Sequence record: MT611523.1
Length of the DNA: 64,000 bases
Strand: one strand, 5' to 3'
From: Escherichia phage DK-13
Under the pieces are notes generated by a model. It did no database searches and had not been told where the DNA came from. It worked only from the letters and a program-made list of their open reading frames with translations. Every line of letters begins with the position of its first letter. The stretch's first letter is position 1. Below, piece after piece: positions 22,325-39,602 of this stretch. The position numbers were made by a program, and so were the translations under genes.

Positions 22325-22353
22325 AATGTATATCTTAACAACAGGACTACAAA

Positions 22354-23172: not shown

Positions 23173-23193
23173 TTTAATAAGGTTATACAACAC

Positions 23194-24753
23194 ATGAAAA
23201 AGAATGCATTAGTTCAAAAATGGTCCGCTCTGCTGGAAAACGAAGCTCTTCCGGAAATCGTTGGTGCTTCTAAACAAGCTATCATCGCTAAAATCTTTGA
23301 AAACCAGGAACAAGATATTCTGACCGCTCCTGAATACCGTGACGAAAAAATCTCTGAAGCATTTGGTTCTTTCCTGACCGAAGCTGAAATCGGTGGTGAC
23401 CATGGTTATGATGCTACCAATATTGCTGCTGGCCAGACCTCTGGTGCAGTAACTCAGATTGGGCCGGCAGTTATGGGTATGGTTCGTCGTGCTATCCCGC
23501 ATCTGATTGCGTTTGATATTTGTGGCGTACAGCCTCTGAACAACCCGACTGGCCAGGTATTTGCACTGCGTGCAGTATACGGCAAAGATCCTGTCGCTGC
23601 TGGCGCTAAAGAAGCTTTCCATCCGATGTATGCTCCGAACGCTATGTTCTCTGGTCAGGGCGCTGCTCAGACTTTTGAAGCACTGGCTGCAAGCAAAGTT
23701 CTGGAAGTTGGTAAAATTTATTCTCACTTCTTCGAAGCAACCGGTTCTGCACACTTCCAGGCTGTTGAAGCTGTAACTGTTGATGCTGCTGCTACCGATG
23801 CTGCTAAACTTGACGCTGCTGTTACCGCTCTGGTTGAAGCTGGTCAGCTGGCTGAACTGGCTGAAGGTATGGCTACCTCCATCGCCGAACTGCAAGAAGG
23901 TTTTAACGGTTCCCAGGATAACCCGTGGAACGAAATGGGCTTCCGCATCGACAAACAAGTTATCGAAGCTAAATCCCGTCAGCTGAAAGCAAGCTACTCC
24001 ATCGAACTGGCACAGGACCTCCGCGCTGTTCACGGTATGGATGCTGATGCCGAATTGAGTGGTATTCTGGCTACCGAAATTATGCTGGAAATCAACCGCG
24101 AAGTTATCGATTGGATTAACTACTCCGCACAGGTTGGTAAATCTGGTATGACCAACACCGTTGGCGCTAAAGCTGGTGTGTTTGACTTCCAGGACCCGAT
24201 TGATATCCGTGGTGCTCGTTGGGCTGGTGAAAGCTTCAAAGCTTTACTGTTCCAGATTGATAAAGAAGCCGCTGAAATCGCTCGTCAGACCGGTCGTGGT
24301 GCAGGTAACTTCATCATCGCTTCCCGTAACGTAGTTAACGTGCTGGCTGCTGTTGATACTTCTGTTAGTTATGCTGCTCAGGGTCTGGGTAAAGGTTTCA
24401 ACGTTGACACCACTAAAGCTGTGTTCGCTGGTGTTCTGGGTGGCAAATACCGTGTCTATATCGACCAGTATGCTCGTGCAGATTACTTCACCATCGGTTA
24501 CAAAGGCGCTAACGAAATGGATGCTGGTATCTACTACGCACCATATGTTGCACTGACCCCGCTGCGTGGTTCTGACCCGAAAAACTTCCAGCCGGTTATG
24601 GGCTTCAAAACCCGTTACGGTATCGGTATCAACCCGTTTGCTGACCCTGCTGCTCAGGCTCCGACCAAGCGCATTCAGAACGGCATGCCGGACATCGTTA
24701 ACAGCCTTGGCTTGAACGGTTACTTCCGCCGCGTATATGTTAAAGGAATTTAA
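23194..24753 (+). CDS. gp23: Major capsid protein gp23
   Basis: 519 aa; position, length and high codon bias consistent with T4 gp23. Confidence 0.95.
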   Translation: MKKNALVQKWSALLENEALPEIVGASKQAIIAKIFENQEQDILTAPEYRDEKISEAFGSFLTEAEIGGDHGYDATNIAAGQTSGAVTQIGPAVMGMVRRAIPHLIAFDICGVQPLNNPTGQVFALRAVYGKDPVAAGAKEAFHPMYAPNAMFSGQGAAQTFEALAASKVLEVGKIYSHFFEATGSAHFQAVEAVTVDAAATDAAKLDAAVTALVEAGQLAELAEGMATSIAELQEGFNGSQDNPWNEMGFRIDKQVIEAKSRQLKASYSIELAQDLRAVHGMDADAELSGILATEIMLEINREVIDWINYSAQVGKSGMTNTVGAKAGVFDFQDPIDIRGARWAGESFKALLFQIDKEAAEIARQTGRGAGNFIIASRNVVNVLAAVDTSVSYAAQGLGKGFNVDTTKAVFAGVLGGKYRVYIDQYARADYFTIGYKGANEMDAGIYYAPYVALTPLRGSDPKNFQPVMGFKTRYGIGINPFADPAAQAPTKRIQNGMPDIVNSLGLNGYFRRVYVKGI

Positions 24754-24775
24754 TCCTAGATTAAGTTAAATAAAA

Positions 24776-24800
24776 AGGGACCCTTGAGGTCCCTTTCTTG
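24776..24800 (+). terminator. Hairpin AGGGACC-CTTGA-GGTCCCT after gp23
   Basis: 7-bp stem followed by T-rich tract. Confidence 0.7.
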
Positions 24801-24803
24801 TTT

Positions 24804-25085
24804 TCATACCATACCATTTAAATGAACTTCTACCCGGCGCTTGATGAGGTCTCTGAAGTTAACATTGTTTTCTTGAAGTTTCAACCAGTTACCATTTTTA
24901 TCTTTAGTGTGAGTAGAATAATTACCATTCCACCAGAAATCAGTGTCATATGCTAAGTTTTCATATTTTTTAACTAGTTTGTTCAGAGCATTACCATTAA
25001 CACCATTTGGGTATTTGTTGACCAAGGCAATAACTTCAATTTCCAGATTTTTAAAGGTGTTCAGAAGGAAAGTTGCTTTGTTCAT
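24804..25085 (-). CDS. Hypothetical protein (93 aa) on opposite strand between gp23 and gp24
   Basis: ORF with its own upstream early-type promoter; occupies the slot where T4 carries segD. Confidence 0.5.
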   Translation of the reverse strand: MNKATFLLNTFKNLEIEVIALVNKYPNGVNGNALNKLVKKYENLAYDTDFWWNGNYSTHTKDKNGNWLKLQENNVNFRDLIKRRVEVHLNGMV

Positions 25086-25109
25086 TTTTAAACTCCAGGT
25101 TTTGTTTGT

Positions 25110-25150
25110 TAACTCAGTATGGAATCATTATGTCTTATCTTAATCTGGTT
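25110..25150 (-). promoter_or_regulatory. Early-type promoter upstream of the 93-aa minus-strand gene
   Basis: Minus strand reads GTTTAC-N18-CATAATGATTCCATAC. Confidence 0.45.
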
Positions 25151-25162
25151 GTAAACAACTTT

Positions 25163-25170
25163 TATAAATA
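25163..25170 (+). promoter_or_regulatory. Late promoter TATAAATA upstream of gp24
   Basis: Exact octamer. Confidence 0.6.
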
Positions 25171-25195
25171 AAGTATATCACAAAAGGAAATAGCA

Positions 25196-26476
25196 ATGGC
25201 TAAAATTAACGAACTCTTAAAAGAGTCGACCACGACCACAAGTTCTTCGATTGGTCGACCGAATCTAGTAGCTTTAACCAGAGCTACGACTAAACTGATT
25301 TACACCGATTTAGTAGCACAACAGCGCACATCCCAGCCACTGGCGGCATTATACGGTCTTAAATACCTGACTCAGCAAGATGAATTATCTTTCCAGACTG
25401 GTGCAACCTATTCTGGTGCAGTATCAGCAAAAGACCGTGCGACCATTCCGGTTTTTGTTGCTGGCACAGTTTATGCTAAAGACGATTTGTTCCAGTTTGA
25501 AAATGTAGTTTATAAAGCGCTGGTAGCAACTCCATTTGCTGGAGCAACGGGCGATGAGTATGACCAGCTTCAAGAAGCGATGGTTAAATTGACCATCCGT
25601 ATTATGTCCGAAGCTGCAATCACCGAACGTTTTGAAGGACCGCAGGAAGTCGAAATTGCCGAAGCTAAATTTTTGGTTAACAAATGGAATGCTCCGGTTA
25701 AATCTCGTAAGCTGAAAAGCACTGTTACAGTGGAACTGGCCCAGGACCTGGAAGCAAACGGTTTTGACGCTCCAAACTTCCTGGAAGACCTGTTAGCTAC
25801 CGAAATGGCTGATGAAATTAACAAAGATATCCTGCAATCCCTGGTAACAGTTTCCAAGCGTTATAAAGTTGCTGGGCTCTGTGATGATGGCCTGATTGAC
25901 CTGTCTTATACCAACTCTCCGGAAGCTTCACGCAAGTTGTACGAAATCATGTGTGAGATGGTCTCCCATATTCAGCGGGCAACTTCTTACACCGCAACAT
26001 ACGTTGTTGCTTCTACGCGTGTAGCTGCAGTTTTGGCTGGTTCCGGTTGGTTGAAGCATCGTCCACAAGATGAGAAATATCTCTCCGATAATGCGTATGG
26101 TTTCTTGGATAATGGTCTACCGCTTTATTGCGATACGAACACTCCATTTGATTATGTGACTGTTGGTGTTAAAGAAGATTTCGGTGGGAAAGAGATGGTG
26201 GGTTCACTGTTTTATGCACCTTATACCGAAGGTCTTGACCTGGAAGACCCTGAACATGTTGGTTCGTTCAAAGTTGTCGTTGACCCAGAAAGTTTGCAGC
26301 CGTCTATTGCATTAATGGTTCGTTATGCGTTAGCAGCTAACCCTTATACAGTGACTGCTGATGATAAACAAGCTCGTATTATTGATGCAACAAATATGGA
26401 TTTGATGGCAGGACGTTCAGATATGTCTGTACTGCTTGGTGTGAAACTTCCTAAAGTTCTGACTGAAATAAATTAA
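25196..26476 (+). CDS. gp24: Capsid vertex protein gp24
   Basis: 426 aa; late promoter upstream; synteny. Confidence 0.9.
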   Translation: MAKINELLKESTTTTSSSIGRPNLVALTRATTKLIYTDLVAQQRTSQPLAALYGLKYLTQQDELSFQTGATYSGAVSAKDRATIPVFVAGTVYAKDDLFQFENVVYKALVATPFAGATGDEYDQLQEAMVKLTIRIMSEAAITERFEGPQEVEIAEAKFLVNKWNAPVKSRKLKSTVTVELAQDLEANGFDAPNFLEDLLATEMADEINKDILQSLVTVSKRYKVAGLCDDGLIDLSYTNSPEASRKLYEIMCEMVSHIQRATSYTATYVVASTRVAAVLAGSGWLKHRPQDEKYLSDNAYGFLDNGLPLYCDTNTPFDYVTVGVKEDFGGKEMVGSLFYAPYTEGLDLEDPEHVGSFKVVVDPESLQPSIALMVRYALAANPYTVTADDKQARIIDATNMDLMAGRSDMSVLLGVKLPKVLTEIN

Positions 26477-26478
26477 AA

Positions 26479-26503
26479 AGGGACCTTCGGGTCCCTTTAT
26501 TTT
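26479..26503. terminator. Bidirectional hairpin AGGGACC-TTCG-GGTCCCT between convergent gp24 and rnlB
   Basis: Stem-loop flanked by A-run and T-run. Confidence 0.7.
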
Positions 26504-27510
26504 TATTCACTAACTAATGCAATCCAAACATGTCTTAATGTTTCTCTTACATTTGTGATGAGTTGCTTTTTAACTTCAACAGGATTTTCCGTCAGGGATA
26601 ATTCAAGACCTTCGCGCCCCGCTTCTTCCAGAATATCTTGGACTGTTAACCCCATTACCTTTCCAAAATCCTTCGGTGTTACTTCCCCAATTTTACTGAT
26701 AACATTGTTGATACGGTTAACAGTCACATAATCAGTGAAATTCCACAGTAAATCCATATCATTTTGGCTCAGAACCACTGCAGCCTTAATAGGCTTATCA
26801 GACTTTTTCTTTTCACTGAATTTAGAGTTCTTACATTTAATCGCTACACGCTCGCCGTTAGGTAACCATGCAGGAACATCAGGTTTTAATACAAATCCTT
26901 CAGCAGTGAATACTTTACCTTCCGCCTTTGCATCAAAATCAGTGGTATTTGCTGTAGTCAAACCTGCGTTATCCACTGTAAAATTGTAATCAGGGACAAC
27001 AGAATCCAGGTCATTAGGGAGCTTAATTAATTCTTCAAAACTACCTGTAGCCAGGCGCGGTGCAACCTTAAACTTATGGATAATACAGAATGCTTCCATC
27101 AAGGTGTCAGTCAGGACGGATTCAAAACCATCTTCTTTAGTAACGCGGATATCAAATACATAAAAATCTTTATCACCGTAATCCACATTCTTCTGGATAC
27201 CTGCCCCGGCAAACTCACCATAAATCTGGTATGCCTGGTAATTAATATCCTGCAAAAGTTTCTGCACAGATTTAATAGAATCAGCATAATTCTTTAATAC
27301 AATTTCATAACCATAGAAATCTTCTGCAGGCAGGATAGGTCCAGTGCGTTTCGCACATGTCACATTGTCTTGTTCAATGATTAATGAAAAGTTGGTACCA
27401 TGAATCTTCTCGCGAGCTACCCATTCACCGCTGGTGAAGCCTTGCAGGCGAATCTTTTCAATGAACTTGTTGTTATAGTGATTTTCAAGGCTGTTGTATT
27501 TCTTAAACAT
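26503..27510 (-). CDS. rnlB: RNA ligase 2 (Rnl2)
   Basis: 335 aa; nucleotidyltransferase lysine motif REKIHGTNF; convergent with gp24. Confidence 0.85.
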
Positions 27511-27599
27511 AATCTCTCACTTTTGATGTTATAAATATCATTATAAATTAGACCCATTATACTTTCTTTCTCTGAAAGGAATTAATAGTCACAAAGGGG

Positions 27600-27640
27600 T
27601 CTAGAACCATTATACCACAATTTTATTTGAAGCAAAAAGG
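27600..27640 (-). promoter_or_regulatory. Middle (MotA-box) promoter upstream of rnlB
   Basis: Minus strand reads TTGCTTCA-N13-TATAAT-GGTTCTAGACCCC (approximate coordinates). Confidence 0.5.
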
Positions 27641-27641
27641 G

Positions 27642-27905
27642 TCAGAATTTTACATACAGCATTGGCTTGGCTTCTTGCCAATCATAATTCCAGGTAAATG
27701 ATGTAAATTTTTCTGCTCGCAGAAAATCAGATATCTTCGCGCGGTTTCCTTCTTCATACTCTTTTTCAGAAACTGCCATATTAACAGCATCTTTGCCATT
27801 CTCGGCGGCGGCAATAGCCACTTTGCGAAATATAGCAATAAAGTCATTTGCAACTTTATCTTGGGATTCTTTTGCGATTTGACGTAGTTCTTCTGCGAAT
27901 GTCAT
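27642..27905 (-). CDS. Hypothetical protein (24.2-like position)
   Basis: 87 aa ORF, synteny only. Confidence 0.45.
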   Translation of the reverse strand: MTFAEELRQIAKESQDKVANDFIAIFRKVAIAAAENGKDAVNMAVSEKEYEEGNRAKISDFLRAEKFTSFTWNYDWQEAKPMLYVKF

Positions 27906-28105
27906 TTCTTCACCTTTTTGTTATTCAAACGTTTACGATAAACAATCTTTTCTTTTGCTTTAAATTTAGCTTTGGCCTGTTCTACATCAACCCAGGCCTT
28001 TGCCATCTCTTTAGCAGTCCCGCCTAATACCTTGGCAATTTCAATAAATGTCATGCCAGATTCATGCAGAAAATGTACTTTAACCTTATCCATAATGATT
28101 CTCAT
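27902..28105 (-). CDS. Hypothetical small protein with helix-turn-helix-like segment (24.3-like position)
   Basis: 67 aa; GMTFIEIAKVLGGTAKEMAKAW resembles an HTH; basic C-terminus. Confidence 0.45.
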   Translation of the reverse strand: MRIIMDKVKVHFLHESGMTFIEIAKVLGGTAKEMAKAWVDVEQAKAKFKAKEKIVYRKRLNNKKVKK

Positions 28106-28198
28106 GTTGAGTTAGTGAAGCTATCTTAACATGGAATTTTTAACTTGTAAACAGGGTTTTTATGCCAGGCGACGTTTGTACAGTACCATAAAAACAAA

Positions 28199-28220
28199 GG
28201 GACCCGAAGGTCCCTTTTTA
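28199..28220 (-). terminator. Hairpin GGGACC-CGAA-GGTCCC downstream of hoc
   Basis: Stem-loop flanked by A/T runs. Confidence 0.6.
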
Positions 28221-28221
28221 A

Positions 28222-29070
28222 TTAATAAACGTAATCGTATATAATACCAGCTTCTAAAGCGGTGCGATGAATAATTCGACCATTACGAGATTCCTGTACA
28301 TCAACCTCTGGATAGTCGGTAATCATTTTTTGAAGTGTATATCGGTGCAAATAATACGGGCTATCTGGAGCATCAGTTTTCCAGTCTTGCTCAGCAAGAG
28401 TCATTTTCTGAATTTCGTCCATAACCCACCAACCACACCAGATATAAGCTGAATTACGAACTGGCAGCGGATGAACGTAAGGTAGTTCGCCCTCTGGTTC
28501 AGGAGCTACTTTAGCCGTGACTGTTACATTACCAGTTTTTGTAACGGTTACAGGGTTATAATCAGTCGCAGATACAACAACAGAAACTTCAATTACCTGG
28601 GAACCTTCGGTGCTTGTATCGATTGCTAGAGTATCCGTGGTGCCAACTACAGGAGAACCGTCTTTCTTCCATGAATAGGCAAAAGTAGCTCCACTCGGTG
28701 CGCCAACTACATCTGCTTTAAATGAAGCTAGGGTGTCTTCCGGAACATTAATTGATTCTGGGGTTAATGTCACAGAAACACCAGACATTGTTTTATTCTG
28801 GATAGTTAAAGTTGTTTCGGCTTCAGCTGTTTCTGGTTCGCCGTCCGCTGGTGTAGTTGTTGCAACAACTTTAATAGTCTTACTGCCTGCTGGACCAACA
28901 GCAACATAATCCATTGCAGCAGTCACAGAAGATTGAGGAACGCCATCAACGGTCCAGACAAATGATTCGGTACCTTCAGCTGCAGCACCGGAACCGGTCG
29001 CAGTGAAATTGGTTGTTGCTCCAATAACGGCCGTAGCCGCCAAAGGAGCAATAGTTACGGTATAAGCCAT
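28222..29070 (-). CDS. hoc: Highly immunogenic outer capsid protein Hoc (shortened)
   Basis: C-terminal region matches recalled T4 Hoc (VTVTKTGNVTVTAKVAPEPEGELPYVHPLP...WCGWWVMDEIQKMT); 282 aa versus 376 in T4. Confidence 0.8.
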   Translation of the reverse strand: MAYTVTIAPLAATAVIGATTNFTATGSGAAAEGTESFVWTVDGVPQSSVTAAMDYVAVGPAGSKTIKVVATTTPADGEPETAEAETTLTIQNKTMSGVSVTLTPESINVPEDTLASFKADVVGAPSGATFAYSWKKDGSPVVGTTDTLAIDTSTEGSQVIEVSVVVSATDYNPVTVTKTGNVTVTAKVAPEPEGELPYVHPLPVRNSAYIWCGWWVMDEIQKMTLAEQDWKTDAPDSPYYLHRYTLQKMITDYPEVDVQESRNGRIIHRTALEAGIIYDYVY

Positions 29071-29079
29071 AATAAACCC

Positions 29080-29745
29080 TTATTTTAAAGTGACAAAAGA
29101 TGAGTTACGAGTTTCTCGTACTAGAACAGACCCATTACGATTGATGTAATAAATCAAACTGAATAGAGTTTGGTGTGCGGTGGGATGTGGGAAAGCAGTT
29201 GGACGTTCTTTCCAATCTGGAGTCTCGGCAATCCACTGATAAATCCACCATGGAACAGTACAGAATCCAGGGTTCTTACCAATAAGCATAAGATTTGGAC
29301 TAAAGTTTTTTGGCAGAGCAAATACAGGTTTTTCAGATTCGATAACCTTAGCAACAGCAGCTTCGAACTTTTCTTCGACAAAAGGAACATCTTCTTCAAC
29401 CACAACAACTGGTTCTTCGATTTCAACAACTTCAACCTTTGCTTCGGTTGGAGCATCAAATAAGAGTTTAGCTTCTTCTTTAGCTGACTCATCGCCATCA
29501 AATTTAGCACCTGACAATTCATCATCGGCATCGATAAGGTCAGTGATGCTCAGGCCTTCATTATCATCAGGCATAGGCATGTCAGCAAATGCTTTAAGTC
29601 CTGCTTCCAGGTCAGCCAACATATTATCAAAGGTTTTTGTTTTCTTAACATCAACACCAAGTGATGCTGCATATTCGGCTAATTTTTCTTTGGCTTCTTT
29701 TTTCTCGAGGACACGAATTTCCTCAATGTAGTTCTTGTCAATCAT
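29080..29745 (-). CDS. inh: Putative inhibitor of prohead protease Inh
   Basis: 221 aa acidic protein immediately upstream of hoc; synteny. Confidence 0.5.
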   Translation of the reverse strand: MIDKNYIEEIRVLEKKEAKEKLAEYAASLGVDVKKTKTFDNMLADLEAGLKAFADMPMPDDNEGLSITDLIDADDELSGAKFDGDESAKEEAKLLFDAPTEAKVEVVEIEEPVVVVEEDVPFVEEKFEAAVAKVIESEKPVFALPKNFSPNLMLIGKNPGFCTVPWWIYQWIAETPDWKERPTAFPHPTAHQTLFSLIYYINRNGSVLVRETRNSSFVTLK

Positions 29746-29763
29746 GATGAACCTCGGTTAGTG

Positions 29764-29771
29764 TATAAATA
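29764..29771 (+). promoter_or_regulatory. Late promoter TATAAATA upstream of uvsW
   Basis: Exact octamer about 30 nt upstream of uvsW ATG. Confidence 0.55.
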
Positions 29772-29799
29772 TAGATATATTTATTACCTTGGAATCATC

Positions 29800-31299
29800 A
29801 TGGATATTAAAATCAACTTTCTAAATTTTAGTCACGTGCATGTTGAATGTGAAGATGGAATCTTCTACGAACTCCGTGATTACTTCAGCTTCGAAGCTGA
29901 AAACTATCGCTTCAATCCAAAGTTCAAGCAGGGAGTTTGGGACGGACGTATCCGCCTCCTGGATTACAATCGTAAATTACCATACGGTTTGGTTAATCAA
30001 ATTAAAAAGTTCGCTGACCAGTTTGGCTATTCATTCTGGATTGACCCGCAAATCACCGAGAAAGAAGAAATCTCTCGCGAAGAATTCAACAAATGGGTTG
30101 AGTCAAAAGAAATCTATTCAGGCAATACCAAGATAACTCCTCATTGGTATCAATCTGACGCCGTATATGATGGTCTGGTCAACAGAAGAAAGATTCTGAA
30201 CTTACCTACGTCTGCAGGTAAAAGCCTCATCCAGGCGCTTCTGGCGCGATATTATCTCGAGAACTATGAAGGCAAGGTGCTTATCCTTGTTCCTACAACT
30301 GCGCTTGTTGACCAGATGATTAATGACTTTGTTGATTATCGGCTTTTCCCTCGTGCAGCTTGTCTGGGTATTCGTTCCGGGACTAAACGCGATTCTGATG
30401 CGATGATTTATGTATCGACTTATCAGACGGCTGTAAAACAACCTAAAGAATGGTTTGAACAGTTTGGCCAGTTTATGAATGACGAATGCCACATGGCTAC
30501 AGGTAAATCGATTTCGACGGTTATCGAAGGCCTTACGAATTGCATGTTTAAATTTGGTCTGTCAGGTTCACTCCGTGATGGCAAAGCCAACCTTATGCAA
30601 TATATGGGTCTGTTTGGTGATATCTTTAAACCAGTATCAACATCTAAATTAATGGAAGATGGCCAGGTTACTGACCTTAAAATAAATAGTATTTTCCTTC
30701 GTTACCCTGATGAATTCACCGTTAAAATGAAAGGTAAAACTTATCAGGATGAAATCAAGGTAATTACAAAAGCTACACGCAGAAATAAATGGGTAACAAA
30801 CCTTGCCCTCAAGCTTTCTAAAAAAGATGAAAACGTCTTTTTGATGTTTAAGAATATCGAGCACGGTAAATCGATGTTTGAAATGATTAAGGAAGCTGGT
30901 CATGAAAAAGTGTATTATGTTTCTGGGGAAGTCGATACCGAAACTCGTAATGCTCTGAAGGTCATGGCAGAGAATGGAAAGGGAATTATTGTTGTAGCTT
31001 CATATGGTGTATTCTCGACGGGGATTTCCGTTAAAAACCTCCATCATATTATTTTCGCTCACCCAGTCAAGTCAAAGGTAATTGTACTCCAGACAATTGG
31101 CCGCGTGCTTCGAAAACATGAATCCAAATCACAAGCAAACGTTTTTGATATCGTTGACGATATGGGTGTTAAACCTAAATCGGCAAATGCTAAAAAGAAA
31201 TATGTTCATTTGAACTTTGCCCTAAAGCATGGCCTTGAACGTATACAAAGATATGCTGATGAACGGTTTAACTATGTAATTAAACAGGTGGAAATTTGA
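29800..31299 (+). CDS. uvsW: UvsW DNA/RNA helicase
   Basis: Start MDIKINFLNFSHVHVECEDG matches recalled T4 UvsW; Walker A LPTSAGKS, DECH box. Confidence 0.9.
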   Translation: MDIKINFLNFSHVHVECEDGIFYELRDYFSFEAENYRFNPKFKQGVWDGRIRLLDYNRKLPYGLVNQIKKFADQFGYSFWIDPQITEKEEISREEFNKWVESKEIYSGNTKITPHWYQSDAVYDGLVNRRKILNLPTSAGKSLIQALLARYYLENYEGKVLILVPTTALVDQMINDFVDYRLFPRAACLGIRSGTKRDSDAMIYVSTYQTAVKQPKEWFEQFGQFMNDECHMATGKSISTVIEGLTNCMFKFGLSGSLRDGKANLMQYMGLFGDIFKPVSTSKLMEDGQVTDLKINSIFLRYPDEFTVKMKGKTYQDEIKVITKATRRNKWVTNLALKLSKKDENVFLMFKNIEHGKSMFEMIKEAGHEKVYYVSGEVDTETRNALKVMAENGKGIIVVASYGVFSTGISVKNLHHIIFAHPVKSKVIVLQTIGRVLRKHESKSQANVFDIVDDMGVKPKSANAKKKYVHLNFALKHGLERIQRYADERFNYVIKQVEI

Positions 31300-31991
31300 A
31301 TTATCAAAAAATATATGATGATTTAATTGGGAGCCGAAAGGCTTCCAAACCAATTGGATATACGGAATCTCACCATATTATTCCAGAATGTATGGGTGGA
31401 CCTGATACACAAGAAAACAGAGTCAACCTTACTCCAGAAGAACATTTCGTTGCGCATAAATTATTGGCCAAAATTCATCCTAATCATTACGGTCTTATAA
31501 AGGCCGTCATTGCTATGGGTATGAGCTCTCGAACACATCAACGACAATTTAATAAATCGTATGGATGGGAGCGTAGACAAATGTCAGTTCTTCAAACTGG
31601 TGAAGGTAATCCTTTTTATGGTAAGCACCATACTGAAGAACATAAAGAATATATGAGCCAATTATTAAAGGGTCGCAAAATAACTTGGGCCGATAAAATA
31701 TCTGCGACAAAGAAAGCGAATCCGTATAAATACTCTCAAGCACAATGTCAAGCTATATCTGAAAGAAATAAAGGTGAAGGTAATTGGATGTATGGTAAAT
31801 CACATACACCAGAAGCATCAAAGAAAATTTCAGATAAAGCAAAAGAACGTTATAAGGACCCATCCAAAAATCCTGCCGCTAAGAAAGTGGTTTTAAACGG
31901 GATTGAATATGGTTCGATGAAGCAAGCTTCTGTAGCAACGGGGCTTTCTTTATATAAAATCAGAAATTTAATTAAACAGGTGGAAATATAA
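31296..31991 (+). CDS. HNH homing endonuclease, Mob-like
   Basis: YTESHHIIPECMGG HNH core; repeated NxxYGKxHTxE modules; apparent TTG start preceded by AGGTGG. Confidence 0.85.
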   Translation: MNYQKIYDDLIGSRKASKPIGYTESHHIIPECMGGPDTQENRVNLTPEEHFVAHKLLAKIHPNHYGLIKAVIAMGMSSRTHQRQFNKSYGWERRQMSVLQTGEGNPFYGKHHTEEHKEYMSQLLKGRKITWADKISATKKANPYKYSQAQCQAISERNKGEGNWMYGKSHTPEASKKISDKAKERYKDPSKNPAAKKVVLNGIEYGSMKQASVATGLSLYKIRNLIKQVEI

Positions 31992-32218
31992 TGAAATCCT
32001 TCGAAGAAATTATGTACGAAGCATCAATTGAAGGCTTTATGGCTAAGATTGGTTCCTGTCAGACCATGGACGGTCTGAAGGAGTTGGAAGGCTATTATAA
32101 GAAACGCAGCAAAGAAGCTGAACTGAAAGATTCCGATGATATCAGTGTTCGCGATGCTCTTGCCGGTAAACGCGCCGAGCTTGAGGATATGGACGACGAA
32201 GAAGACGAAGATTTCTAA
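31991..32218 (+). CDS. uvsW.1: UvsW.1-like small acidic protein
   Basis: 75 aa; TAATG overlap with upstream gene; synteny. Confidence 0.65.
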   Translation: MKSFEEIMYEASIEGFMAKIGSCQTMDGLKELEGYYKKRSKEAELKDSDDISVRDALAGKRAELEDMDDEEDEDF

Positions 32219-32275
32219 ATAAAAAGGCCCCAACCAAAAGGAAGGGGCAAAACCAAAAATGGTTAACAACACTAG

Positions 32276-32443
32276 CTAAATTAAAAGTTGGGTCTCGTTC
32301 AGTTGCTCTTCTGTATTTTCCGTAACTGGCAAACTCTGAACATAATTATAACAGGCGCCCGGATGCACCGGACCTTGGTCTGTATCCACAACCAATGCAG
32401 AATCGATTGGAGTTTTACAGACAACACAAATCTTATCTGACAT
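32276..32443 (-). CDS. Small hypothetical protein (uvsY.-2 position), about 55 aa
   Basis: My own translation, below the ORF-track size cut-off: MSDKICVVCKTPIDSALVVD...; synteny. Confidence 0.4.
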   Translation of the reverse strand: MSDKICVVCKTPIDSALVVDTDQGPVHPGACYNYVQSLPVTENTEEQLNETQLLI

Positions 32444-32582
32444 GATTGTCTCCTCAGTTAAACTTACATATCTATTTAGTGCTCTTCATAATAGCAGCAC
32501 GAGCTTTCATCTCATTAACAATTTCGGTTATTCGGTTTGCAGAGATAACCATCTCGTCGAGAATCTTACTAATATTTTTCAT

Positions 32583-32816
32583 TTAATTTTCCTTAAAGTA
32601 TCTCATACCAGTATCTATTCCCATATTGTGAGAATAGAACGCATCATCGATGTATCCTGCAAATTTACCTTTAACATAGATAACATCTTCACCACAAGGG
32701 TGGTCAGCGCAGATACGAATATCTGCACGATTCAATTTCCATTCCTTCATCATATACTTAATTTCTTCTTCGAACTCTTCGTCTTGGTTAAACGCATCGT
32801 CGATAGAATATCGCAT
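32583..32816 (-). CDS. Hypothetical protein (uvsY.-1 position)
   Basis: 77 aa; TAATG overlap with uvsY. Confidence 0.55.
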   Translation of the reverse strand: MRYSIDDAFNQDEEFEEEIKYMMKEWKLNRADIRICADHPCGEDVIYVKGKFAGYIDDAFYSHNMGIDTGMRYFKEN

Positions 32817-33250
32817 TACTTGCCCGCCTCAAATTGTCTTATTTCTAACATATGTTTAAGTGCGAAACTTCGTGACTTAACACCATCTAATGCAGCGCTA
32901 CAGAAGTCCTGGAGCAGTGTCCAATACTGAATTGACGTATCAATCTTCAGTACGCTTGAATCTGCGGCCATGACTGTTTTCAATTCTGACTTCTCGTACA
33001 CATCCATGCATACTTCTTCCCCTGGGTCACCCCTTCCTGTATAATGGTCTAGTCGTTTTTTCAGTGCAGTTTTCTTCTGAATCTCAAGACGCATTATTTC
33101 TTTCTTGCAGTTGGTATACAATCTCAACCATTTGCTATGCAACAAAACGTTGTTTTGTGTTTCATATTGAAGTTGTGTACCATCAATTTTTAAATCTGCA
33201 TCTAACTCATCCTGAAAGACTTCTAACTTATATTCAATCTCTGTTTTCAT
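32816..33250 (-). CDS. uvsY: Recombination mediator UvsY
   Basis: QLQYETQNNVLLHSKWL...GRGD...KSRSFALKHMLEIRQFEAGK matches recalled T4 UvsY; MotA-type promoter upstream. Confidence 0.85.
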   Translation of the reverse strand: MKTEIEYKLEVFQDELDADLKIDGTQLQYETQNNVLLHSKWLRLYTNCKKEIMRLEIQKKTALKKRLDHYTGRGDPGEEVCMDVYEKSELKTVMAADSSVLKIDTSIQYWTLLQDFCSAALDGVKSRSFALKHMLEIRQFEAGK

Positions 33251-33269
33251 AATGTATCCAATGTAAGGG

Positions 33270-33312
33270 TCTAGAACCATTATACAGCCATAAAATTAAA
33301 GCATTAACCGTT
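33270..33312 (-). promoter_or_regulatory. Middle (MotA-box) promoter upstream of uvsY
   Basis: Minus strand reads AATGCTTTA-N12-TATAAT-GGTTCTAGACCC. Confidence 0.55.
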
Positions 33313-33693
33313 TTGACTTAGCTGAATCCTGATTTGTTCGAGGGTATCAGGGTCATCAACAATGCTGAACTGAACTGTTACGATAATGGAGTTATCATCA
33401 TACATAGGGACAACTGCCACCTGTAGATTGCTTATCCTTGGTTCGAAGTTCCGCACCGCGGAGACGATGTTGCGTTTAATGGTATCTGTGATTAATGGAG
33501 TGATATTCTCGAAAAGCTGATTACTTATATCACATCCAAATTCAGGCATAAAAGGCCTTGACCCTTTTCTTGTGGTGATTATTCCCAAAAGACTGTTCTT
33601 AACAGACCTTGCACCAGTTACTTTAGCAACGTCTTTATCCCAACTTGTAGATAAGTCGGGAGACACATCGCTATACATTTTGTTTATATTCAT
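33304..33693 (-). CDS. gp25: Baseplate wedge protein gp25
   Basis: 129 aa; gpW/gp25-like; synteny. Confidence 0.85.
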   Translation of the reverse strand: MNINKMYSDVSPDLSTSWDKDVAKVTGARSVKNSLLGIITTRKGSRPFMPEFGCDISNQLFENITPLITDTIKRNIVSAVRNFEPRISNLQVAVVPMYDDNSIIVTVQFSIVDDPDTLEQIRIQLSQNG

Positions 33694-34317
33694 TTACATA
33701 AACTTAAAGAATTCTTTAAGCCCCTTAATTACATGGACAGAATGTGCTCCGCACTCGCAAGAGATAGGAATAGCCATTTGGACCTGTGGCTTGAGAAGTT
33801 CTTCTGTTAGTGCATTTATATCATCGAGGGTAATTGCATTGTACAGGTCCTCGATTTCAGCTTCATTTAAGTCATCAACAACGATGCGCTCACCGCCTTC
33901 CGTGATAATATATTCGATACAACAAGCAATCATTTTTCCTTTATCACCATCTTCAAACAGTCCAGGATAACGGAATTTAATTTTAAACGCCCCGAAATCA
34001 CGAATAACTTCAGACTCATCCACGATGCTTGCGCGACTTATAGTCACAGGAATATCTTGTTCCTTTCCGCACTCACATACCCATGTATGCTCGACGTTAA
34101 CAGCTCCGAGACTATTTGCCCAGAGATTAATAAGAAGCAGCTCGGCTTCCTGTTTGTTTAACCCTTTAGCATCAGTGCATTTATTAAGCAGTTCAATTAT
34201 TGCAGGTTCCATACGCTTTTCTAATTTTGCCTGAAGCAAATCTTTGTATTCGCGCAAGGTAAAAGCCCTACAATTTATAGTTTTATTTTTAATTTGGACA
34301 ATAAATTCATAAGTCAT
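33694..34317 (-). CDS. gp26: Baseplate hub protein gp26
   Basis: 207 aa from ATG with GGAG RBS (track ORF extends to a TTG at 34350); T4 gp26 is 208 aa. Confidence 0.75.
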   Translation of the reverse strand: MTYEFIVQIKNKTINCRAFTLREYKDLLQAKLEKRMEPAIIELLNKCTDAKGLNKQEAELLLINLWANSLGAVNVEHTWVCECGKEQDIPVTISRASIVDESEVIRDFGAFKIKFRYPGLFEDGDKGKMIACCIEYIITEGGERIVVDDLNEAEIEDLYNAITLDDINALTEELLKPQVQMAIPISCECGAHSVHVIKGLKEFFKFM

Positions 34318-34335
34318 AATTTGCTCCTTTACTGT

Positions 34336-34346
34336 ATTTATAAATA
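34336..34346. promoter_or_regulatory. Palindromic divergent late promoter TATTTATAAATA between gp26 and gp51
   Basis: TATAAATA on plus strand and its reverse complement on minus strand overlap by 5 nt. Confidence 0.55.
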
Positions 34347-34370
34347 TCAATAAAGATAAAAGGGGATTCT

Positions 34371-35123
34371 ATGGCCAATATCGTAAGATGTGAAATGCCA
34401 GACGGAGTTCATCGTTTCAAACCGTTTACAGTCGCTGATTACCGTGATTTACTGCTTGTGCGAAACGACATGAACAACAAACCCGTCGAAGAACAAAAAC
34501 AATTATTAGACGAACTGTTGGAAGATTATTTTGGAGAGTATCCAAAAGCATGGAGGCCTTACATATTTCTGAAGGTATTCACTTCCTCTATCGGTAAGAC
34601 AAAAGTCCCGGTAGCGTTTGAATGTCAAAAATGTAAAAAGACAAAGCAGACTTTGTTTAACCTGAATCAGGGTCCATTAGTAAATCCAACGATGGAAACC
34701 GCCGGGATAAAAATACAATTTAAGTTCCCTGAAGTGGAATATAAAGATAAGTCAGAGCTTGTCTTGAATACCATCCAGACTGTCGAAGACTCGGAACAAA
34801 AATACAATTGGGAAGACCTTCCTGAAGAAACAAAGATGCAGGTTATCGATGCAATTGATATAGAGAGTCTCGAAGCACTCCTTAAGAAAATGCATTCGGT
34901 TTATATTCCATTTACATATGGCTGTTGTGAAAAGCACAAAACCGAATACACTGACCTGCTTGACGTCTTTAAGCTTATCCTTAACCCGGATGAAGTCTTT
35001 GTATTTTATCAAATTAACCACTTGCTGGTAAAGAATCAATATTCGCTGGATAGCATCATGCATATGATTCCTATTGAACGAGGTATTGCTTTATCACTAG
35101 TTGAGAAGGACTTGAAAAAATGA
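34371..35123 (+). CDS. gp51: Baseplate hub assembly protein gp51
   Basis: 250 aa; divergent from gp26 across a late promoter; synteny. Confidence 0.8.
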
Positions 35124-36289
35124 CAGTTAAATCTATGCAGCGCGAAGGCTTTCCTAATATCAGCATCCGCCTTTACGAAGATTATGATGCATGGCTTGAG
35201 CACCGTTTTGTGGAACTAGCTGCTACCTTTACAACGTTAACCATGCGCGATTCCCTTTACGGAAGAAACGAGGGGCTCTTGCAATTCTATGATACGAAAA
35301 ACCTACATACAAAAATGAATGGTGAACAGGTTATTCAGATTTCTGTTAAGAATGCCAACTCTGACCGAACCCAATCTAGAATATATGGAAGTAAACACTT
35401 TGCCGTTTCCGTGGATTCAAAGGGTGATAACATAATTACAATTCAGCTGGCTCCTATTCACGAAATTGAAGACTTGAAATTTAGTCGTATGTTTTACCCG
35501 AGCGTACAGGAAACATTAGTCGAAATGACCGGGGTAATTTATCAAGATAGACCATTACTTTCCCCACCAATAAACGGCATAAACGTTTATGCTCCTAACG
35601 TTCCATGGTGTGATTCGATGAACCAATATATGGAATTCATAAGGGAAGTTGGCCTGTCGGTAGAAACTGATAAATTTGTTTTTGTATGGGAAGATATTGA
35701 TGGGATAAGTATCCAGGATTATGAATGGCTAACATCACAAGAGCCAATTAATTTTGTGGTGGGGGAACCTCGATTGGTTGGGCAATTTGTACAAAACCTG
35801 ACTACTCCTTTAGCCTTCGATTTTGAATGGTTAACAAAGGCAAACCAACACACAAGAAAACCATACGAAAACGCAACCGTGTATGCACATTCATTCCTTG
35901 ATAAGAACGCAACCAGAATAACTTTTGGGGAAGGACAAAACAGTATTCTGGTATCTCGTTCCGGTGGCTATGCAGATTACACATACCGAAATGGTTTCGA
36001 GGAAGCACAACGATTGATAACCATGTCACAATATGACGGTTACGCGCATTGCAAAACGTACGGGAACTTTGAATTAACTCCGGGCGATAAGATAAATTTC
36101 TTTGACCCTAAGAACCAATTCAAATATGATTTTTACGTAGACGAAGTTATTCATGAAGTGAGTAACAATACATCAATTACAAACCTCTATATGTTTACCA
36201 ATGGTAAGCCTATCGAAGTTGAAGAACCACCGAAGGTTAAAAATGAACTTAAAACTGATTCTGCCGACGAAGAAAATACAGCTGGGTGA
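35120..36289 (+). CDS. gp27: Baseplate hub protein gp27
   Basis: 389 aa versus 391 in T4; synteny. Confidence 0.85.
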
Positions 36290-36761
36290 TAAAGAGATTC
36301 ATGTTCCTAAGCTTGGTCTCAAGCATCACAATCTGATTAAAAACGAACCTAACCCATACGCTGCATTAAGAAAGATTATGCAATCGATATTCCCTAATCT
36401 TACAGCAGCCGAATCCGACTTTGTATCTTTACATCTCCTGGAATTCAATGGTAAGCTAAAAGACAAACGCGAGATTAATGGATTTACATATAAGCTGGAT
36501 GATGTTTATATCTGTCAGCGCCTTGAATTTTCTTATCAAGGAAAGACATTTAAATTCCGCTCCAATAAACCGTATGAAGAATTCGGACCAGTTGACAATC
36601 TCCTGGAGACCCTTTATCTTGGGGAAGATGTTCCAGACTTTCTGGATATGCCTGCTTTTGTTGCTAAGTGGGCAGACGATATCACAAGCACATTAGCAAT
36701 CCCGGGTCCGAATGGTCCTGTTAAGGGGTTACTGAAAATAATGGAACTCCTAAATGAATAA
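36243..36761 (+). CDS. gp28: Baseplate hub distal subunit gp28
   Basis: 172 aa from internal ATG (T4 gp28 is 177 aa); overlaps 3' end of gp27. Confidence 0.7.
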
Positions 36762-38499
36762 AAACTCCGAACAAACGAGCTTCAGACGCGGTGGACCTAA
36801 TAAAAAGCTTATCGAAGAATTAGCACCACAAAGGAGGGCGGAAGCCCTCTCTGCTGAACAGAATGATGAATTATCGAATCTGAATACAACTCTTACAAAT
36901 ACTCAGGCGGCAACCGAACTTGTATCGGAAGCTATTGAGGATAAGGGTAATCAGATTATTGAGAATATCCAGACCAACAATGGAGTCCTCCAGGATATCA
37001 GTGCTGGGGTTGAACTGACGGCCGAAGCCACCGAGAAGACTCAACAAGGGATTAAAAACCTCACGGATATTCTCTCGGATAAGCTCGACAAACTCAGTGC
37101 AATGATAAGCGGTAAAATAGGCGTCACGTCTCCTGTGGCTGGTTCTGAAAGCCTTAAACCTGTGGAGGATGCACTACCAGAGCCTGAAGAGAATAAGCCC
37201 ACAGCGAGCGTTCCAGCGCTCATACCGCCAGAAGAAAAAAAGCCCGACGCTGACTTCATTCCGGAACCAGAACAGCCAAAAAACGATGCAGAAGGTAAAG
37301 AGACTAATACCTGGTCACTTGGTGATAAGCTTGATACCCTTTCGAAGATAACCGAAAAAGGATTTAAGGCATCGATTTCTGTAGCTGACCGAATCTCCGG
37401 GATGCTGTTCAAATATACAATTACGGCAGCAGCCGAAGCAGCCAAGCTTATTGGTGGATTATTGTTGTTGGTATTCGGTATCGATGCAATACGAGTTTAC
37501 TTCCAATATTTCATGAAGCAATTCGAAAAAGGCTGGGCCGAATTTAATGATAAGTTCAAAGAATGGGGTCCGTTGCTTGAAGGACTAATGACCTGGGCTA
37601 AGAACGCCGAAGCGATGTTTAGTGAAAGGAACTGGTTAGGATTAGCCGAAGCTATTATCCGTGGGATGGTCAACTTAACGAAGAACATGGCTCAACTTCT
37701 TATGCTTGGTATTTCAAAATTAATCTCGGCTATTTTAAGTAAAATCCCTGGGATGGGTGATTTAGCAGATAATGTGGAAGCCTCAGCTTTGATGTCTTAT
37801 CAGCAAAATACAGGGGCAACTCTGGATGATGAAGACCAAACCAAGATAGCAAAATATCATGACAAACGTTCGGCCGAAGCAATGGAAGCTGCAGAGAAGA
37901 TGAATAAGAAGTATAAGGATAAACCTGAACTAATTAATCAAGCCGAAAAATATGGTAACCTTACCAAGGAACAAGCTGACCAGCTTCGCGCGGGTGGGAT
38001 TGACACAAGCTTCAGAGACCTTCCGGAAGAAGAACGTCTGGACTATTTCAAGAAGCGTGACAAAGCACAGGCTGATATTATTCGTTTGACCCAAACTGCT
38101 GACAACCTAATGAAGCCAGACGCAACCGATAAAAAGAATGCGATGGAAATGAGAGCTAACATTGAAAAACAATTAGCTGACCCAGCTATGGCAAAAGGTG
38201 GAGCTCCGAAAGACCTGAATATGCGCACCCTGTTGGAAAAACTTGATAAGTCTCTCGAGAAGTTCAAAGACGAACCGAAAGTTAAACCGCCGGATGTTAA
38301 GACTTCTCCGGATGCACAACAAGCTGCGAAGGTTGACGAAGGTATGAAGGCCAAAGAAAATAAATACAAGGATGCACCAGCTCAGGCACAAATTAACACG
38401 GTCAATAATATTCAGAAGACTTCCAGGACGCAATACAATATGCCTCCTCAAAGTTCAACCCCTGCCCCTGGCATGAGACAGGCCACGAGAATTAACTAA
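36754..38499 (+). CDS. gp29: Baseplate hub / tail length determinator gp29
   Basis: 581 aa; synteny and size. Confidence 0.85.
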   Translation: MNKNSEQTSFRRGGPNKKLIEELAPQRRAEALSAEQNDELSNLNTTLTNTQAATELVSEAIEDKGNQIIENIQTNNGVLQDISAGVELTAEATEKTQQGIKNLTDILSDKLDKLSAMISGKIGVTSPVAGSESLKPVEDALPEPEENKPTASVPALIPPEEKKPDADFIPEPEQPKNDAEGKETNTWSLGDKLDTLSKITEKGFKASISVADRISGMLFKYTITAAAEAAKLIGGLLLLVFGIDAIRVYFQYFMKQFEKGWAEFNDKFKEWGPLLEGLMTWAKNAEAMFSERNWLGLAEAIIRGMVNLTKNMAQLLMLGISKLISAILSKIPGMGDLADNVEASALMSYQQNTGATLDDEDQTKIAKYHDKRSAEAMEAAEKMNKKYKDKPELINQAEKYGNLTKEQADQLRAGGIDTSFRDLPEEERLDYFKKRDKAQADIIRLTQTADNLMKPDATDKKNAMEMRANIEKQLADPAMAKGGAPKDLNMRTLLEKLDKSLEKFKDEPKVKPPDVKTSPDAQQAAKVDEGMKAKENKYKDAPAQAQINTVNNIQKTSRTQYNMPPQSSTPAPGMRQATRIN

Positions 38500-38507
38500 G
38501 GAATAAC

Positions 38508-39602
38508 ATGAAAGTAAAAGAACTCGATATTGATATTGCGGGTTTATTTAACGGAGGTTCTAAGACCTCCGCTGGGCAGTCAAAAGCTGCCCAGACTCAA
38601 GCTACTATTGTGGCGCAATATCCAGCAGAACGAGCTTCCGGTAATGATTCTTCAGATGATATGCGAGTTAATGACCTTTATAAAAATGGTCTGTTATTCA
38701 CGGCATACAATTTCAGTTCAAGAACATCTCCGGAATTACGCTCAGACAGGTCAAGCCAATTGACTTCATTAAAGAAAGTTTCCAATGGTGCTTCATTTAA
38801 CCCGGTTAAAAGTTTAACATCTTTTGCTAAATCGAAATTAACCGGCGCTGGCTCAACCGGTAAAAGTTTTGATTCAAACGCTGTTGCAAATATCCTGTTG
38901 CCTCGTTCGAAGTCCGATGTAGAATCCGTATCGCATCGATTCAACGATGTTGGTGAGTCTCTTATTACGAAAGGTGGTGGCTCAGCTACAGGTATTCTTA
39001 GTAACATCGCATCGACTGCAGTTTTCGGCGCACTCGAATCAGTTACAAACGGTGTAATGGCCGACCATGGCGAACAGATTTACACAACGGCACGAAGCAT
39101 GTATGCTGGTCCAGACAACAGGACAAAAGTTTATACATGGGAAATGACTCCACGTTCGGCCCAGGACTTAATCCAGATAGTGAAGATATACGAGATTTTT
39201 AACTATTACTCCTATGGAGAAACCGGTAAAAGTTCGTTTGCTTCCGAGCTGAAAGATAAAATCGATACATGGTATAAATCCACCTTCAAAAAGGAAGCAA
39301 TCGATAACTTTGACGGCAAGTTGCTCGGTGAAGAGATAACAAGCTTCCTAACGAACGTTCTGGTGGTCTCTAACCCTACTATCTGGTATATCCGCAACTT
39401 CGGTGATACAAGCTCGTACGATGGCCGTGGGGAGCTATTTGGGCCGTGCCAGATTCAGAGCATAAGATTCGATAAATCCCCGGATGGTCATTTCGGTGGA
39501 TTAGCTATTGCTCCTAACCTGCCATCGACTTTTGTACTTGAAATCACTTTCCGTGAAATCATTACGCTTAACCGTGGCTCACTATATGCGGAAGGTTTCT
39601 AA
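38508..39602 (+). CDS. gp48: Baseplate tail-tube junction protein gp48
   Basis: 364 aa, same as T4 gp48. Confidence 0.85.
   Translation: MKVKELDIDIAGLFNGGSKTSAGQSKAAQTQATIVAQYPAERASGNDSSDDMRVNDLYKNGLLFTAYNFSSRTSPELRSDRSSQLTSLKKVSNGASFNPVKSLTSFAKSKLTGAGSTGKSFDSNAVANILLPRSKSDVESVSHRFNDVGESLITKGGGSATGILSNIASTAVFGALESVTNGVMADHGEQIYTTARSMYAGPDNRTKVYTWEMTPRSAQDLIQIVKIYEIFNYYSYGETGKSSFASELKDKIDTWYKSTFKKEAIDNFDGKLLGEEITSFLTNVLVVSNPTIWYIRNFGDTSSYDGRGELFGPCQIQSIRFDKSPDGHFGGLAIAPNLPSTFVLEITFREIITLNRGSLYAEGF

Follow-up and report, generated by a model that had tools for sequence, protein, structure and literature searches.

A predicted Mob-like homing endonuclease gene with a duplicated uvsW tail at the uvsW/uvsW.1 junction of Escherichia phage DK-13 and its relatives

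Phage T4 carries the HNH homing endonuclease gene mobE as a free-standing gene between nrdA and nrdB. In Aeromonas phage Aeh1, mobE was reportedly found by Friedrich et al. in 2007 to be inserted in nrdA, splitting one gene into two open reading frames (ORFs; “genes in pieces”), and Sandegren et al. in 2005 are said to have observed SegH/Hef replacing mobC/mobE in T4 relatives (cited in PMC2988022). For the free-standing endonucleases of T4, start codons that overlap the upstream stop and co-conversion have both been described, and because these enzymes cleave at a distance from their own genes, the interval in between is always co-converted (PMC2988022). The start of mobE overlaps the upstream stop codon (UAAUGA), suggesting translational coupling, and SegE, a free-standing GIY-YIG endonuclease encoded between inh and uvsW, cleaves uvsW (PMC2988022). 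Here, we analyzed the other side of uvsW in a 64,000-nt stretch of Escherichia phage DK-13 (sequence record MT611523.1; “the window”), where a 692-bp insert holds a predicted HNH homing endonuclease gene (HEG) between the helicase gene uvsW and uvsW.1. We consider it very likely that this insert is a free-standing HEG of the T4 Mob type, a cassette that brings its own copy of the uvsW tail and spreads by intronless homing. An earlier reading of the window from its letters alone (the sequence-only reading) held that no mob gene is known at this position in T4; the review table of T4 endonuclease genes indeed lists none at uvsW/uvsW.1 and only segE at inh/uvsW (PMC2988022), and phage T2 has no gene at uvsW/uvsW.1.

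The DK-13 gene and mobE are alike in encoding an N-terminal HNH domain of the same family, in standing free between conserved DNA-metabolism genes and in their sporadic distribution; the UUGA overlap at the start of the HEG also compares with the UAAUGA of mobE. The two differ in address, in C-terminal region and in the TTG start of the HEG, whose last six codons copy the tail of the upstream gene, a feature for which we found no description in mobE. The activity of MobE has been demonstrated, whereas that of the HEG protein is predicted. Like mobE of Aeh1, the HEG is an HNH gene without intergenic space that must provide stop, start and ribosome-binding signals; unlike nrdA in that phage, uvsW and uvsW.1 are separate genes in every relative examined. 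With segE it has in common that both are free-standing endonuclease genes adjoining uvsW, whose spread co-converts uvsW sequence (PMC2988022), although SegE belongs to another nuclease family and its gene lies on the other side of uvsW. No segE was found in the window, where only 54 bp separate inh and uvsW.

The insert is bounded by a direct repeat, TAATTAAACAGGTGGAAAT, for which no third site was found in the window with three mismatches allowed; two or more matches to this 19-mer occurred in none of 100 dinucleotide-preserving shuffles of the window. The repeat is exactly 19 bp long, as the two copies are preceded by G and T and followed by T and A, respectively. Exact search and translation bore out the sequence-only reading that the 19-mer occurs twice and that UvsW and the HNH protein both end in IKQVEI (coordinates of all features are collected in Table 1). 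Its further claim, that each copy holds an AGGTGG ahead of the following gene, also proved correct, with spacers of 4 nt to the TTG of the HEG and 7 nt to the ATG of uvsW.1. At the left end, the HEG start codon (31296-31298) overlaps the uvsW stop (TGA, 31297-31299) as TTGA; at the right end, the HEG stop (TAA, 31989-31991) overlaps the uvsW.1 start at 31991 as TAATG.

Table 1. Features of the uvsW/uvsW.1 locus in the window, with the 3' ends of the HEG in four genera
Feature	Position	Strand	Details
T4 late-promoter-type motif, TATAAATA	29764..29771	+	Motif search; 29 nt upstream of uvsW ATG
uvsW helicase gene, 499 aa	29800..31299	+	Pfam UvsW_N (E = 1e-39), ResIII, DEAD, Helicase_C
Helicase motif VI codons (QTIGRVLR)	31090..31113	+	-210 to -187 from uvsW stop
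HEG-linked (co-conversion) tract	31101..31272	+	172 bp, 37 substitutions vs RZ
Left 19-bp repeat copy	31277..31295	+	Last uvsW codons (...IKQVEI)
AGGTGG in left copy	31286-31291	+	Can act as Shine-Dalgarno sequence for the HEG
Predicted free-standing Mob-like HNH HEG, 231 codons	31296..31991	+	TTG start, TAA stop
Predicted 11-bp A/U-rich hairpin	31296..31326	+	5' arm starts at TTG; 106-nt fold, z = -3.0
HNH nuclease motif, residues 22-54, YTESHHIIPECMGGPDTQENRVNLTPEEHFVAH	31359..31457	+	57-homologue alignment
Two NUMOD3 DNA-binding motifs, ∼residues 100-137 and 152-179	31593..31832	+	Pfam NUMOD3, E = 6.7e-19; first repeat approximate
C-terminal beta-beta-helix-turn-helix, residues 198-231	31887..31988	+	AlphaFold model
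Right 19-bp repeat copy	31969..31987	+	Last HEG codons (...IKQVEI); equals junction of empty-site phages
AGGTGG in right copy	31978-31983	+	Shine-Dalgarno sequence of uvsW.1
uvsW.1, 75 aa	31991..32218	+	Pfam UvsW-1, E = 7.3e-25
Gaprivervirus HEG 3' end			...ATTAAACAGGTGGAAATATAA; match to uvsW tail 19-23 nt
Dhakavirus HEG 3' end			TAATGAAACAGGTGGATTTATGA; 23/23 nt equal to WG01 uvsW tail
Tequatrovirus HEG 3' end			AAAACAGTTAATTTATAA; 18/18 nt equal to T2 uvsW tail, then same intergenic hairpin
Jiaodavirus HEG 3' end			Only CTATGA in common with uvsW tail

A search with positions 30900-32300 of the window divided the Gaprivervirus records into three sets. The 692-bp insert with two perfect 19-mers was present in five records (two of SP18, and pEC-M719-6WT.2, UPEC01 and TH40), while ∼25 records matched the flanks alone, 709 bp apart, and were classed as empty sites; P479 and vB_YenM_P8 carried a different insert of 782 bp. 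In VR7, RZ, EAWsc9, TH57 and VR20 the empty junction reads ...TATGTAATTAAACAGGTGGAAATATAATGAA..., with one 19-mer and the uvsW TAA overlapping the uvsW.1 ATG (the single copy was confirmed in those empty-site records whose junction was read, a subset of the ∼25). When IMG/VR was scanned for the junction 22-mer, the sole matches were VR20, VR25 and VR26, none of them new to the comparison. Empty alleles of this kind, with a single 19-mer and uvsW stopping directly into the start of uvsW.1, had been predicted from the window, and among the relatives we found neither two 19-mers without the HEG nor a HEG that is universal and lacks empty alleles. The locus shows the presence/absence polymorphism at a fixed site among close relatives that is expected of a Mob-like gene.

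Filled and empty alleles also differ beside the insert. In a 7.4-kb alignment, the window and RZ differ at 78 positions, with none at 30379-31100, 0-2 per 100 nt over 1 kb leftward, and 21% divergence (only five amino-acid changes) in the tract at 31101-31272. Downstream of the insert the two differ at no more than five positions (32610, 34868 and clustered sites at 35269-35275), with 1 difference in 2.9 kb to the right and none across uvsW.1. Across 31066-31435 the window is identical to pEC-M719-6WT.2, and outside this span it follows RZ, placing the left crossover between 31066 and 31100 and the right exchange point between 31988 and ∼32100. The RZ-type tract occurs in ∼17 empty-site records (92-100% identity) and the SP18-type tract in all filled genomes. 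The pattern of an insert with a tract on one side points to homing or recombination in which co-conversion was one-sided, and the simplest reading of these alignments is that an RZ-like genome acquired the HEG and ∼200 bp of upstream uvsW from a donor of the SP18 group. Under intronless homing, an insert-free uvsW allele would presumably be cut or nicked in mixed infections, and repair would copy the HEG together with ∼200 bp of the donor uvsW 3' end into the recipient; the DK-13 allele would be a product of such an event.

On a larger scale the window is a mosaic of sequenced Gapriverviruses. Its left part (17000-29700, 12.7 kb) matches RZ best (99.0%), and for its right part (32300-44000, 11.7 kb) TH41 is the best match (98.0%), with TH41, P479 and UPEC01 edging out RZ (97.6%).

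The same asymmetry was found in filled-versus-empty pairs of four genera, with the final 200 nt of uvsW differing at 13-26 positions per 100 nt against 0-9 further upstream, and with uvsW.1 at background level except in Dhakavirus. Pairs of the same type (empty-empty of one tract type, or filled-filled) showed no excess in the last 200 nt of uvsW. That this region merely evolves faster was rejected, as same-type pairs are flat and KPV15 versus RZ, the only inter-genus empty pair in register, shows no excess (29 and 27 differences per 100 nt in the region, compared to 21-40 per 100 nt). These comparisons are evidence for co-conversion of flanking sequence as described for Mob-like genes. Counted from the uvsW stop, dense divergence sets in somewhere from -250 to -145, which places its onset at the helicase motif VI codons or slightly 3' of them. 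Such an onset fits the rule of cleavage at a distance, and equally fits the nearest stretch of high identity; motif VI may be either the cleavage site or simply the nearest homology anchor for recombination. The empty-site phages EAWsc9 and TH57 (L014/L015) carry a mosaic tract, RZ-type at -169..-166 and -43..-28 and SP18-type between, which places recombination breakpoints inside the 200-bp tract.

The address of the HEG is conserved in at least four Tevenvirinae genera and eight further loci. Orthologues at the same junction were found in Dhakavirus UP19, Jiaodavirus-like Roth67 and Tequatrovirus HY03 (84, 61 and 58% amino acid identity, respectively), and a protein search returned 14 orthologue clusters with 49-97% identity. 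Eight further contigs, including Morganella phage Rgz1, have the order uvsW-HEG(-uvsW.1), with L022 and L023 ending before uvsW.1. In every same-site lineage the HEG start overlaps the uvsW stop and the protein begins MNY(Q/K)... (MKY in one), with TTG as the start codon in five lineages, GTG in one and ATG in seven. Since 13 lineages begin at a codon overlapping the uvsW stop, the TTG start that had been proposed from the window alone is validated by this conserved N-terminus. In SP18 (L002 1993-2592), pEC-M719-6WT.2 (L011 3493-4092) and UPEC01 (L012 3493-4092), the HEG is annotated from an internal ATG as a protein of 199 aa, which drops 32 N-terminal residues and with them the catalytic histidines (the HH of the HNH motif); the start annotation of these three records should be corrected. 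In UPEC01 the label is “group I intron endonuclease”, despite the lack of an intron, and several GenBank and RefSeq records already label it “homing endonuclease”. Literature searches of open-access text returned no paper on an endonuclease gene at uvsW/uvsW.1 or on the duplication of the uvsW tail.

Comparison across genera shows what the repeat consists of. In three of the four genera with insert-free comparators, the HEG 3' end equals the uvsW tail of local empty-site phages (Table 1), and the protein tails vary by genus with the local uvsW (IKQVEI, MKQVDL and KTVNL). On the uvsW side, by contrast, UP19 and HY03 have a recoded tail, AAAGAGGT...TTTGA (...ATGAAAGAGGTyNAAAyTTTGA), which creates a GAGG Shine-Dalgarno sequence for the HEG and resembles the native tail of L018; L018 has its own 16-nt perfect repeat. 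In the SP18 group, where the native tail already contains AGGTGG, the two copies are identical and the change is confined to the last codon and stop, from ATA TAA to ATT TGA. The copy after the HEG is thus resident sequence, and the copy that ends uvsW tends to move together with the HEG. As the stop/start overlap of uvsW and uvsW.1 leaves no intergenic space, the cassette carries a second uvsW tail: the left copy keeps UvsW full length and supplies the Shine-Dalgarno sequence and TTGA overlap for the HEG, and the right copy gives the HEG its last six codons and stop while preserving the Shine-Dalgarno sequence and TAATG overlap of uvsW.1. The duplication is common but not obligatory for residence at uvsW/uvsW.1, since several lineages have no recognizable duplication.

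Two other origins of the repeat can be weighed against these tails. One is a target-site duplication left at each entry by a transposition-like insertion through a staggered cut, as might be suspected from a perfect repeat that directly flanks the insert and an empty site with exactly one copy. Neither a transposase or integrase nor terminal inverted repeats were found, the sole gene of the insert being of the HNH/NUMOD3 kind; repeat length is not fixed, varying by lineage (19, 16, 8 and ≤6 nt); the Dhakavirus and Tequatrovirus copies differ systematically, cassette-type on the left and resident-type on the right; and ∼200 bp of upstream uvsW moves with the insert, which fits recombinational repair. 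We regard transposition as highly improbable. Accordingly, the view in the sequence-only reading of the repeat as a footprint of insertion at the uvsW junction stands in that a uvsW tail is duplicated, and falls in that the duplication is not made afresh with each insertion, as the differing Dhakavirus and Tequatrovirus copies demonstrate. The other origin, convergence without duplication, appeals to the constraint common to both copies, each of which combines a Shine-Dalgarno sequence with a short coding tail. It has a negligible chance of being right, given that all 19 bases agree, synonymous positions included, that the shuffles produced no second match and that lineages without the duplication use unrelated Shine-Dalgarno-bearing tails; the tracking of the local uvsW tail by the HEG from genus to genus effectively refutes it.

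The HEG protein belongs to PHROG family 655, “homing endonuclease” (E = 7e-57), aligns to T4 MobE with 34% identity over 86% of the protein (tblastn; E = 4e-19) and has relatives in ∼1,100 phage records (tblastn). In the 57-homologue alignment, H27, N41, H50 and H54 are invariant and H26 nearly so (≥90%), and the motif aligns to the HNH of McrA, IscB and Cas8-HNH. An AlphaFold model (mean predicted local distance difference test [pLDDT] 86.5) places the His...Asn...His residues of the HNH (beta-beta-alpha-metal) superfamily in a beta-beta-alpha unit at residues 24-60 (strands 24-27 and 42-45, then helix 47-60), followed by helical NUMOD3 modules and a C-terminal module (strands 198-200 and 203-205; helices 208-215 and 219-230) whose final helix extends into the six codons copied from uvsW. 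The best Foldseek match of the C-terminal module is the I-TevI DNA-binding domain (1i3j, probability 0.98). Fold matches with meaningful sequence identity are limited to the HNH domains of Cas8-HNH, McrA and the GVE2 nuclease, and I-HmuI is a weak fold match whose aligned region is not resolved. I-HmuI and I-TevI differ from the HEG product in being intron-encoded, I-TevI with a GIY-YIG nuclease, and the structural matches are weak and confined to single modules. An N-terminal HNH and a separate C-terminal DNA-binding region, encoded in a stand-alone gene without intron or intein and with complete uvsW and uvsW.1 ORFs on each side, are the arrangement of a Mob-like gene. On these grounds the product is a putative Mob-like free-standing homing endonuclease, with a predicted nuclease activity and a presumed target site. 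The identification in the sequence-only reading of an HNH homing endonuclease is upheld by PHROG 655, the two NUMOD3 motifs, the HNH residues and the family-level likeness to MobE.

The HEG ORF is intact in all five Gaprivervirus alleles and in UP19. Relative to the window allele, the ratio of non-synonymous to synonymous change (dN/dS) is 0.02-0.08, with the proportion of synonymous differences (pS) reaching 0.24 with TH40 and 0.62 with UP19; because synonymous changes greatly exceed non-synonymous ones, the protein is maintained by selection. Such constraint, with every sampled allele intact, would also be found if the protein had been domesticated as a site-specific DNA-binding or nicking factor that serves the phage, for example in recombination-dependent replication with UvsW or in excluding competitors. 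Its position between two recombination genes is kept across genera, and marker exclusion is a known effect of the free-standing endonucleases in T4 (PMC2988022). Against a domesticated role, most close relatives lack the gene and show no visible compensation, and a selfish HEG would be expected to give just such a presence/absence polymorphism with flanking haplotypes linked to it; we judge domestication improbable.

A late-promoter consensus is established for T4, and the TATAAATA motif ahead of uvsW probably drives a uvsW-HEG-uvsW.1 transcript. Together with the TTGA and TAATG overlaps, this late-promoter-type motif suggests that the three genes are translated in sequence from one late transcript, presumably with coupling. 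The TTG start, a spacer of only 4 nt and possibly a hairpin at the start codon point to low expression of the HEG, as is typical of such genes, and the hairpin could make its translation depend on ribosomes finishing uvsW. Expression of the HEG would in that case ride weakly on the late uvsW transcript by translational coupling. A second TATAAATA lies within the HEG ORF at 31725-31732 (codons P-Y-K-Y), 266 nt upstream of uvsW.1, compared to a chance expectation of 0.04 per 696 bp. It recurs in every SP18-group allele, in UP19 of Dhakavirus and in the metagenomic locus L017, and HY03 and Roth67 lack it; in filled genomes it might provide a separate late transcript for uvsW.1, or it may reflect mere codon conservation.

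The different insert of P479 (L003 1897-2682) and vB_YenM_P8 (L010 1897-2682) encodes a paralogue of 261 aa, an HNH endonuclease 33-35% identical to the HEG protein. It occupies the same site in the same frame, starts at ATG, has the first 11 codons and the IKQVEI tail in common with the window HEG and goes with a uvsW tail that is recoded (VVKHVEL), which suggests that the gene interior was replaced by recombination at the shared ends. As with SegH/Hef, different endonuclease genes occupy one site in related phages; unlike in that case, both occupants of uvsW/uvsW.1 fall within PHROG 655 and have 11 initial codons and a uvsW-derived tail in common. A broader proposition, which we hold to be rather unlikely, is that the duplicated tail acts as an adaptor. 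It would enable life inside the coupled gene pair and modular exchange through recombination ends (the first 11 codons and the repeat); the resident tail might be recaptured whenever the HEG passes between lineages, by microhomology (HEG ...RKLLK, uvsW ...V(I/M)K), scar-free excision through the perfect 19-bp repeat would regenerate a cleavable empty site, and the target might be the motif VI codons ∼200 bp upstream, where the linked tract starts to diverge in four genera. An adaptor of this kind would explain a 33%-identical paralogue in the same frame at the same site.

Several observations weigh against a mobile, Mob-type HEG. The gene is present in a minority of Gapriverviruses (∼6/30), where an efficient drive element might be commoner, and VR7 carries the HEG-linked tract without the HEG, so that tract and gene are not strictly linked. 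For the exchange between the window and RZ, polarity is argued from haplotype frequency and not from an outgroup. The tail duplication is absent or decayed in L017, L019-L024 and Roth67, with L017 and L019-L024 having their own Shine-Dalgarno-bearing tails. For the start-codon hairpin, RNAalifold returned no consensus across 14 lineages, and pairing was 75.3% compared to 72.5% in shuffles. Pfam HNH (PF01844) scored 13.8 bits, below its cut-off of 21.4, and whole-model fold matches were weak. The Pfam score is a matter of sensitivity and does not conflict with the motif evidence (at 22.9 bits, the P479 paralogue from the same site clears the cut-off), and weak whole-model matches are expected for an extended modular protein.

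Some of these observations would suit a different history, in which the HEG is an old, vertically inherited, non-homing resident, empty sites arose by precise deletion between the repeats, and the tract came from ordinary mosaic recombination among phages. Such a deletion would restore the exact empty junction, the state of VR7 and the minority of filled genomes would be natural, and HEG and UvsW divergence do broadly follow the same rank order (Dhakavirus 84/83.5%, Jiaodavirus 61/77% and Tequatrovirus 58/72%). However, the RZ backbone lies on both sides of the DK-13 insert, with only the HEG and the adjacent 172-bp tract being of SP18-group type; the RZ-type tract in ∼17 empty-site records of varied backbones makes a gain more parsimonious than a loss in RZ; strong purifying selection on a nuclease would need explaining if it had no role; and in P479 and vB_YenM_P8 the site holds a 33%-identical paralogue, a sign that it was repeatedly invaded or its occupant replaced. 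We therefore consider vertical residence unlikely.

Regarding the neighboring genes, UvsW of the window is 99.4% identical to that of UPEC01. Sigma-70 promoter and terminator scans of 29000-32600 gave counts at shuffle expectation. At 32219-32260, between the convergent genes uvsW.1 and uvsY.-2, A-runs flank an inverted repeat rich in G+C (GGCCCC...GGGGC), where a simple terminator scan made no call; a conserved bidirectional terminator has been reported at this position in T4-like phages (PMC1524935). Upstream of uvsW, a Hoc-like head decoration gene (28222-29070, minus strand) is 849 nt long in the window and RZ and 1134 nt (38-1171) in pEC-M719-6WT.2 (L011) and UPEC01 (L012), with alignment gaps implying 1134 nt in TH40 (an unannotated record) as well. 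The difference of 285 nt corresponds to about one immunoglobulin (Ig)-like domain, and the kilobase around this gene is the most divergent part of the 7.4-kb alignment.

The idea that endonuclease insertion created the split between uvsW and uvsW.1 found no support, as no fused UvsW-UvsW.1 protein was found. A word-seeded UvsW.1 search returned 68 proteins, nearly all of ∼75 aa and the longest of 96 aa, with no fusion, and an exhaustive UvsW.1 profile search of 1.84 billion representatives returned 33 matches and no helicase fusion. These 33 comprised small stand-alone proteins, a ∼290-aa group in which the domain is N-terminal, and a single PPR protein that is a spurious match. The proteins of ∼260-300 aa (P0209-P0213 and P0216-P0219) have an N-terminal UvsW-1 domain (Pfam E of 1e-22 to 1e-24 for two that were checked) and then ∼220 residues without a Pfam match, a domain architecture distinct from the 75-aa stand-alone UvsW.1. 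The 96-aa UvsW.1 of Enterobacteria phage vB_EcoM_IME339 (P0026) contains an internal tandem duplication of ∼20 residues, with CQTLEGLEELEAYYKKRVK repeated.

The HEG at uvsW/uvsW.1 is an uncharacterized addition to the Mob endonucleases known from T4 and an unexceptional case of a type of mobile gene that is already known, which leaves the current understanding of homing endonucleases unchanged. The window phage and RZ are nearly isogenic around the site and offer a natural donor/recipient pair for homing crosses, and the bounds of the imported segment (∼31066-32100) give a concrete place in which to seek the cleavage site. The locus illustrates a way for a selfish gene to settle in a stop/start overlap and leave both neighbors unharmed, by duplicating ∼19 bp that hold the tail of the upstream gene and a ribosome-binding site.

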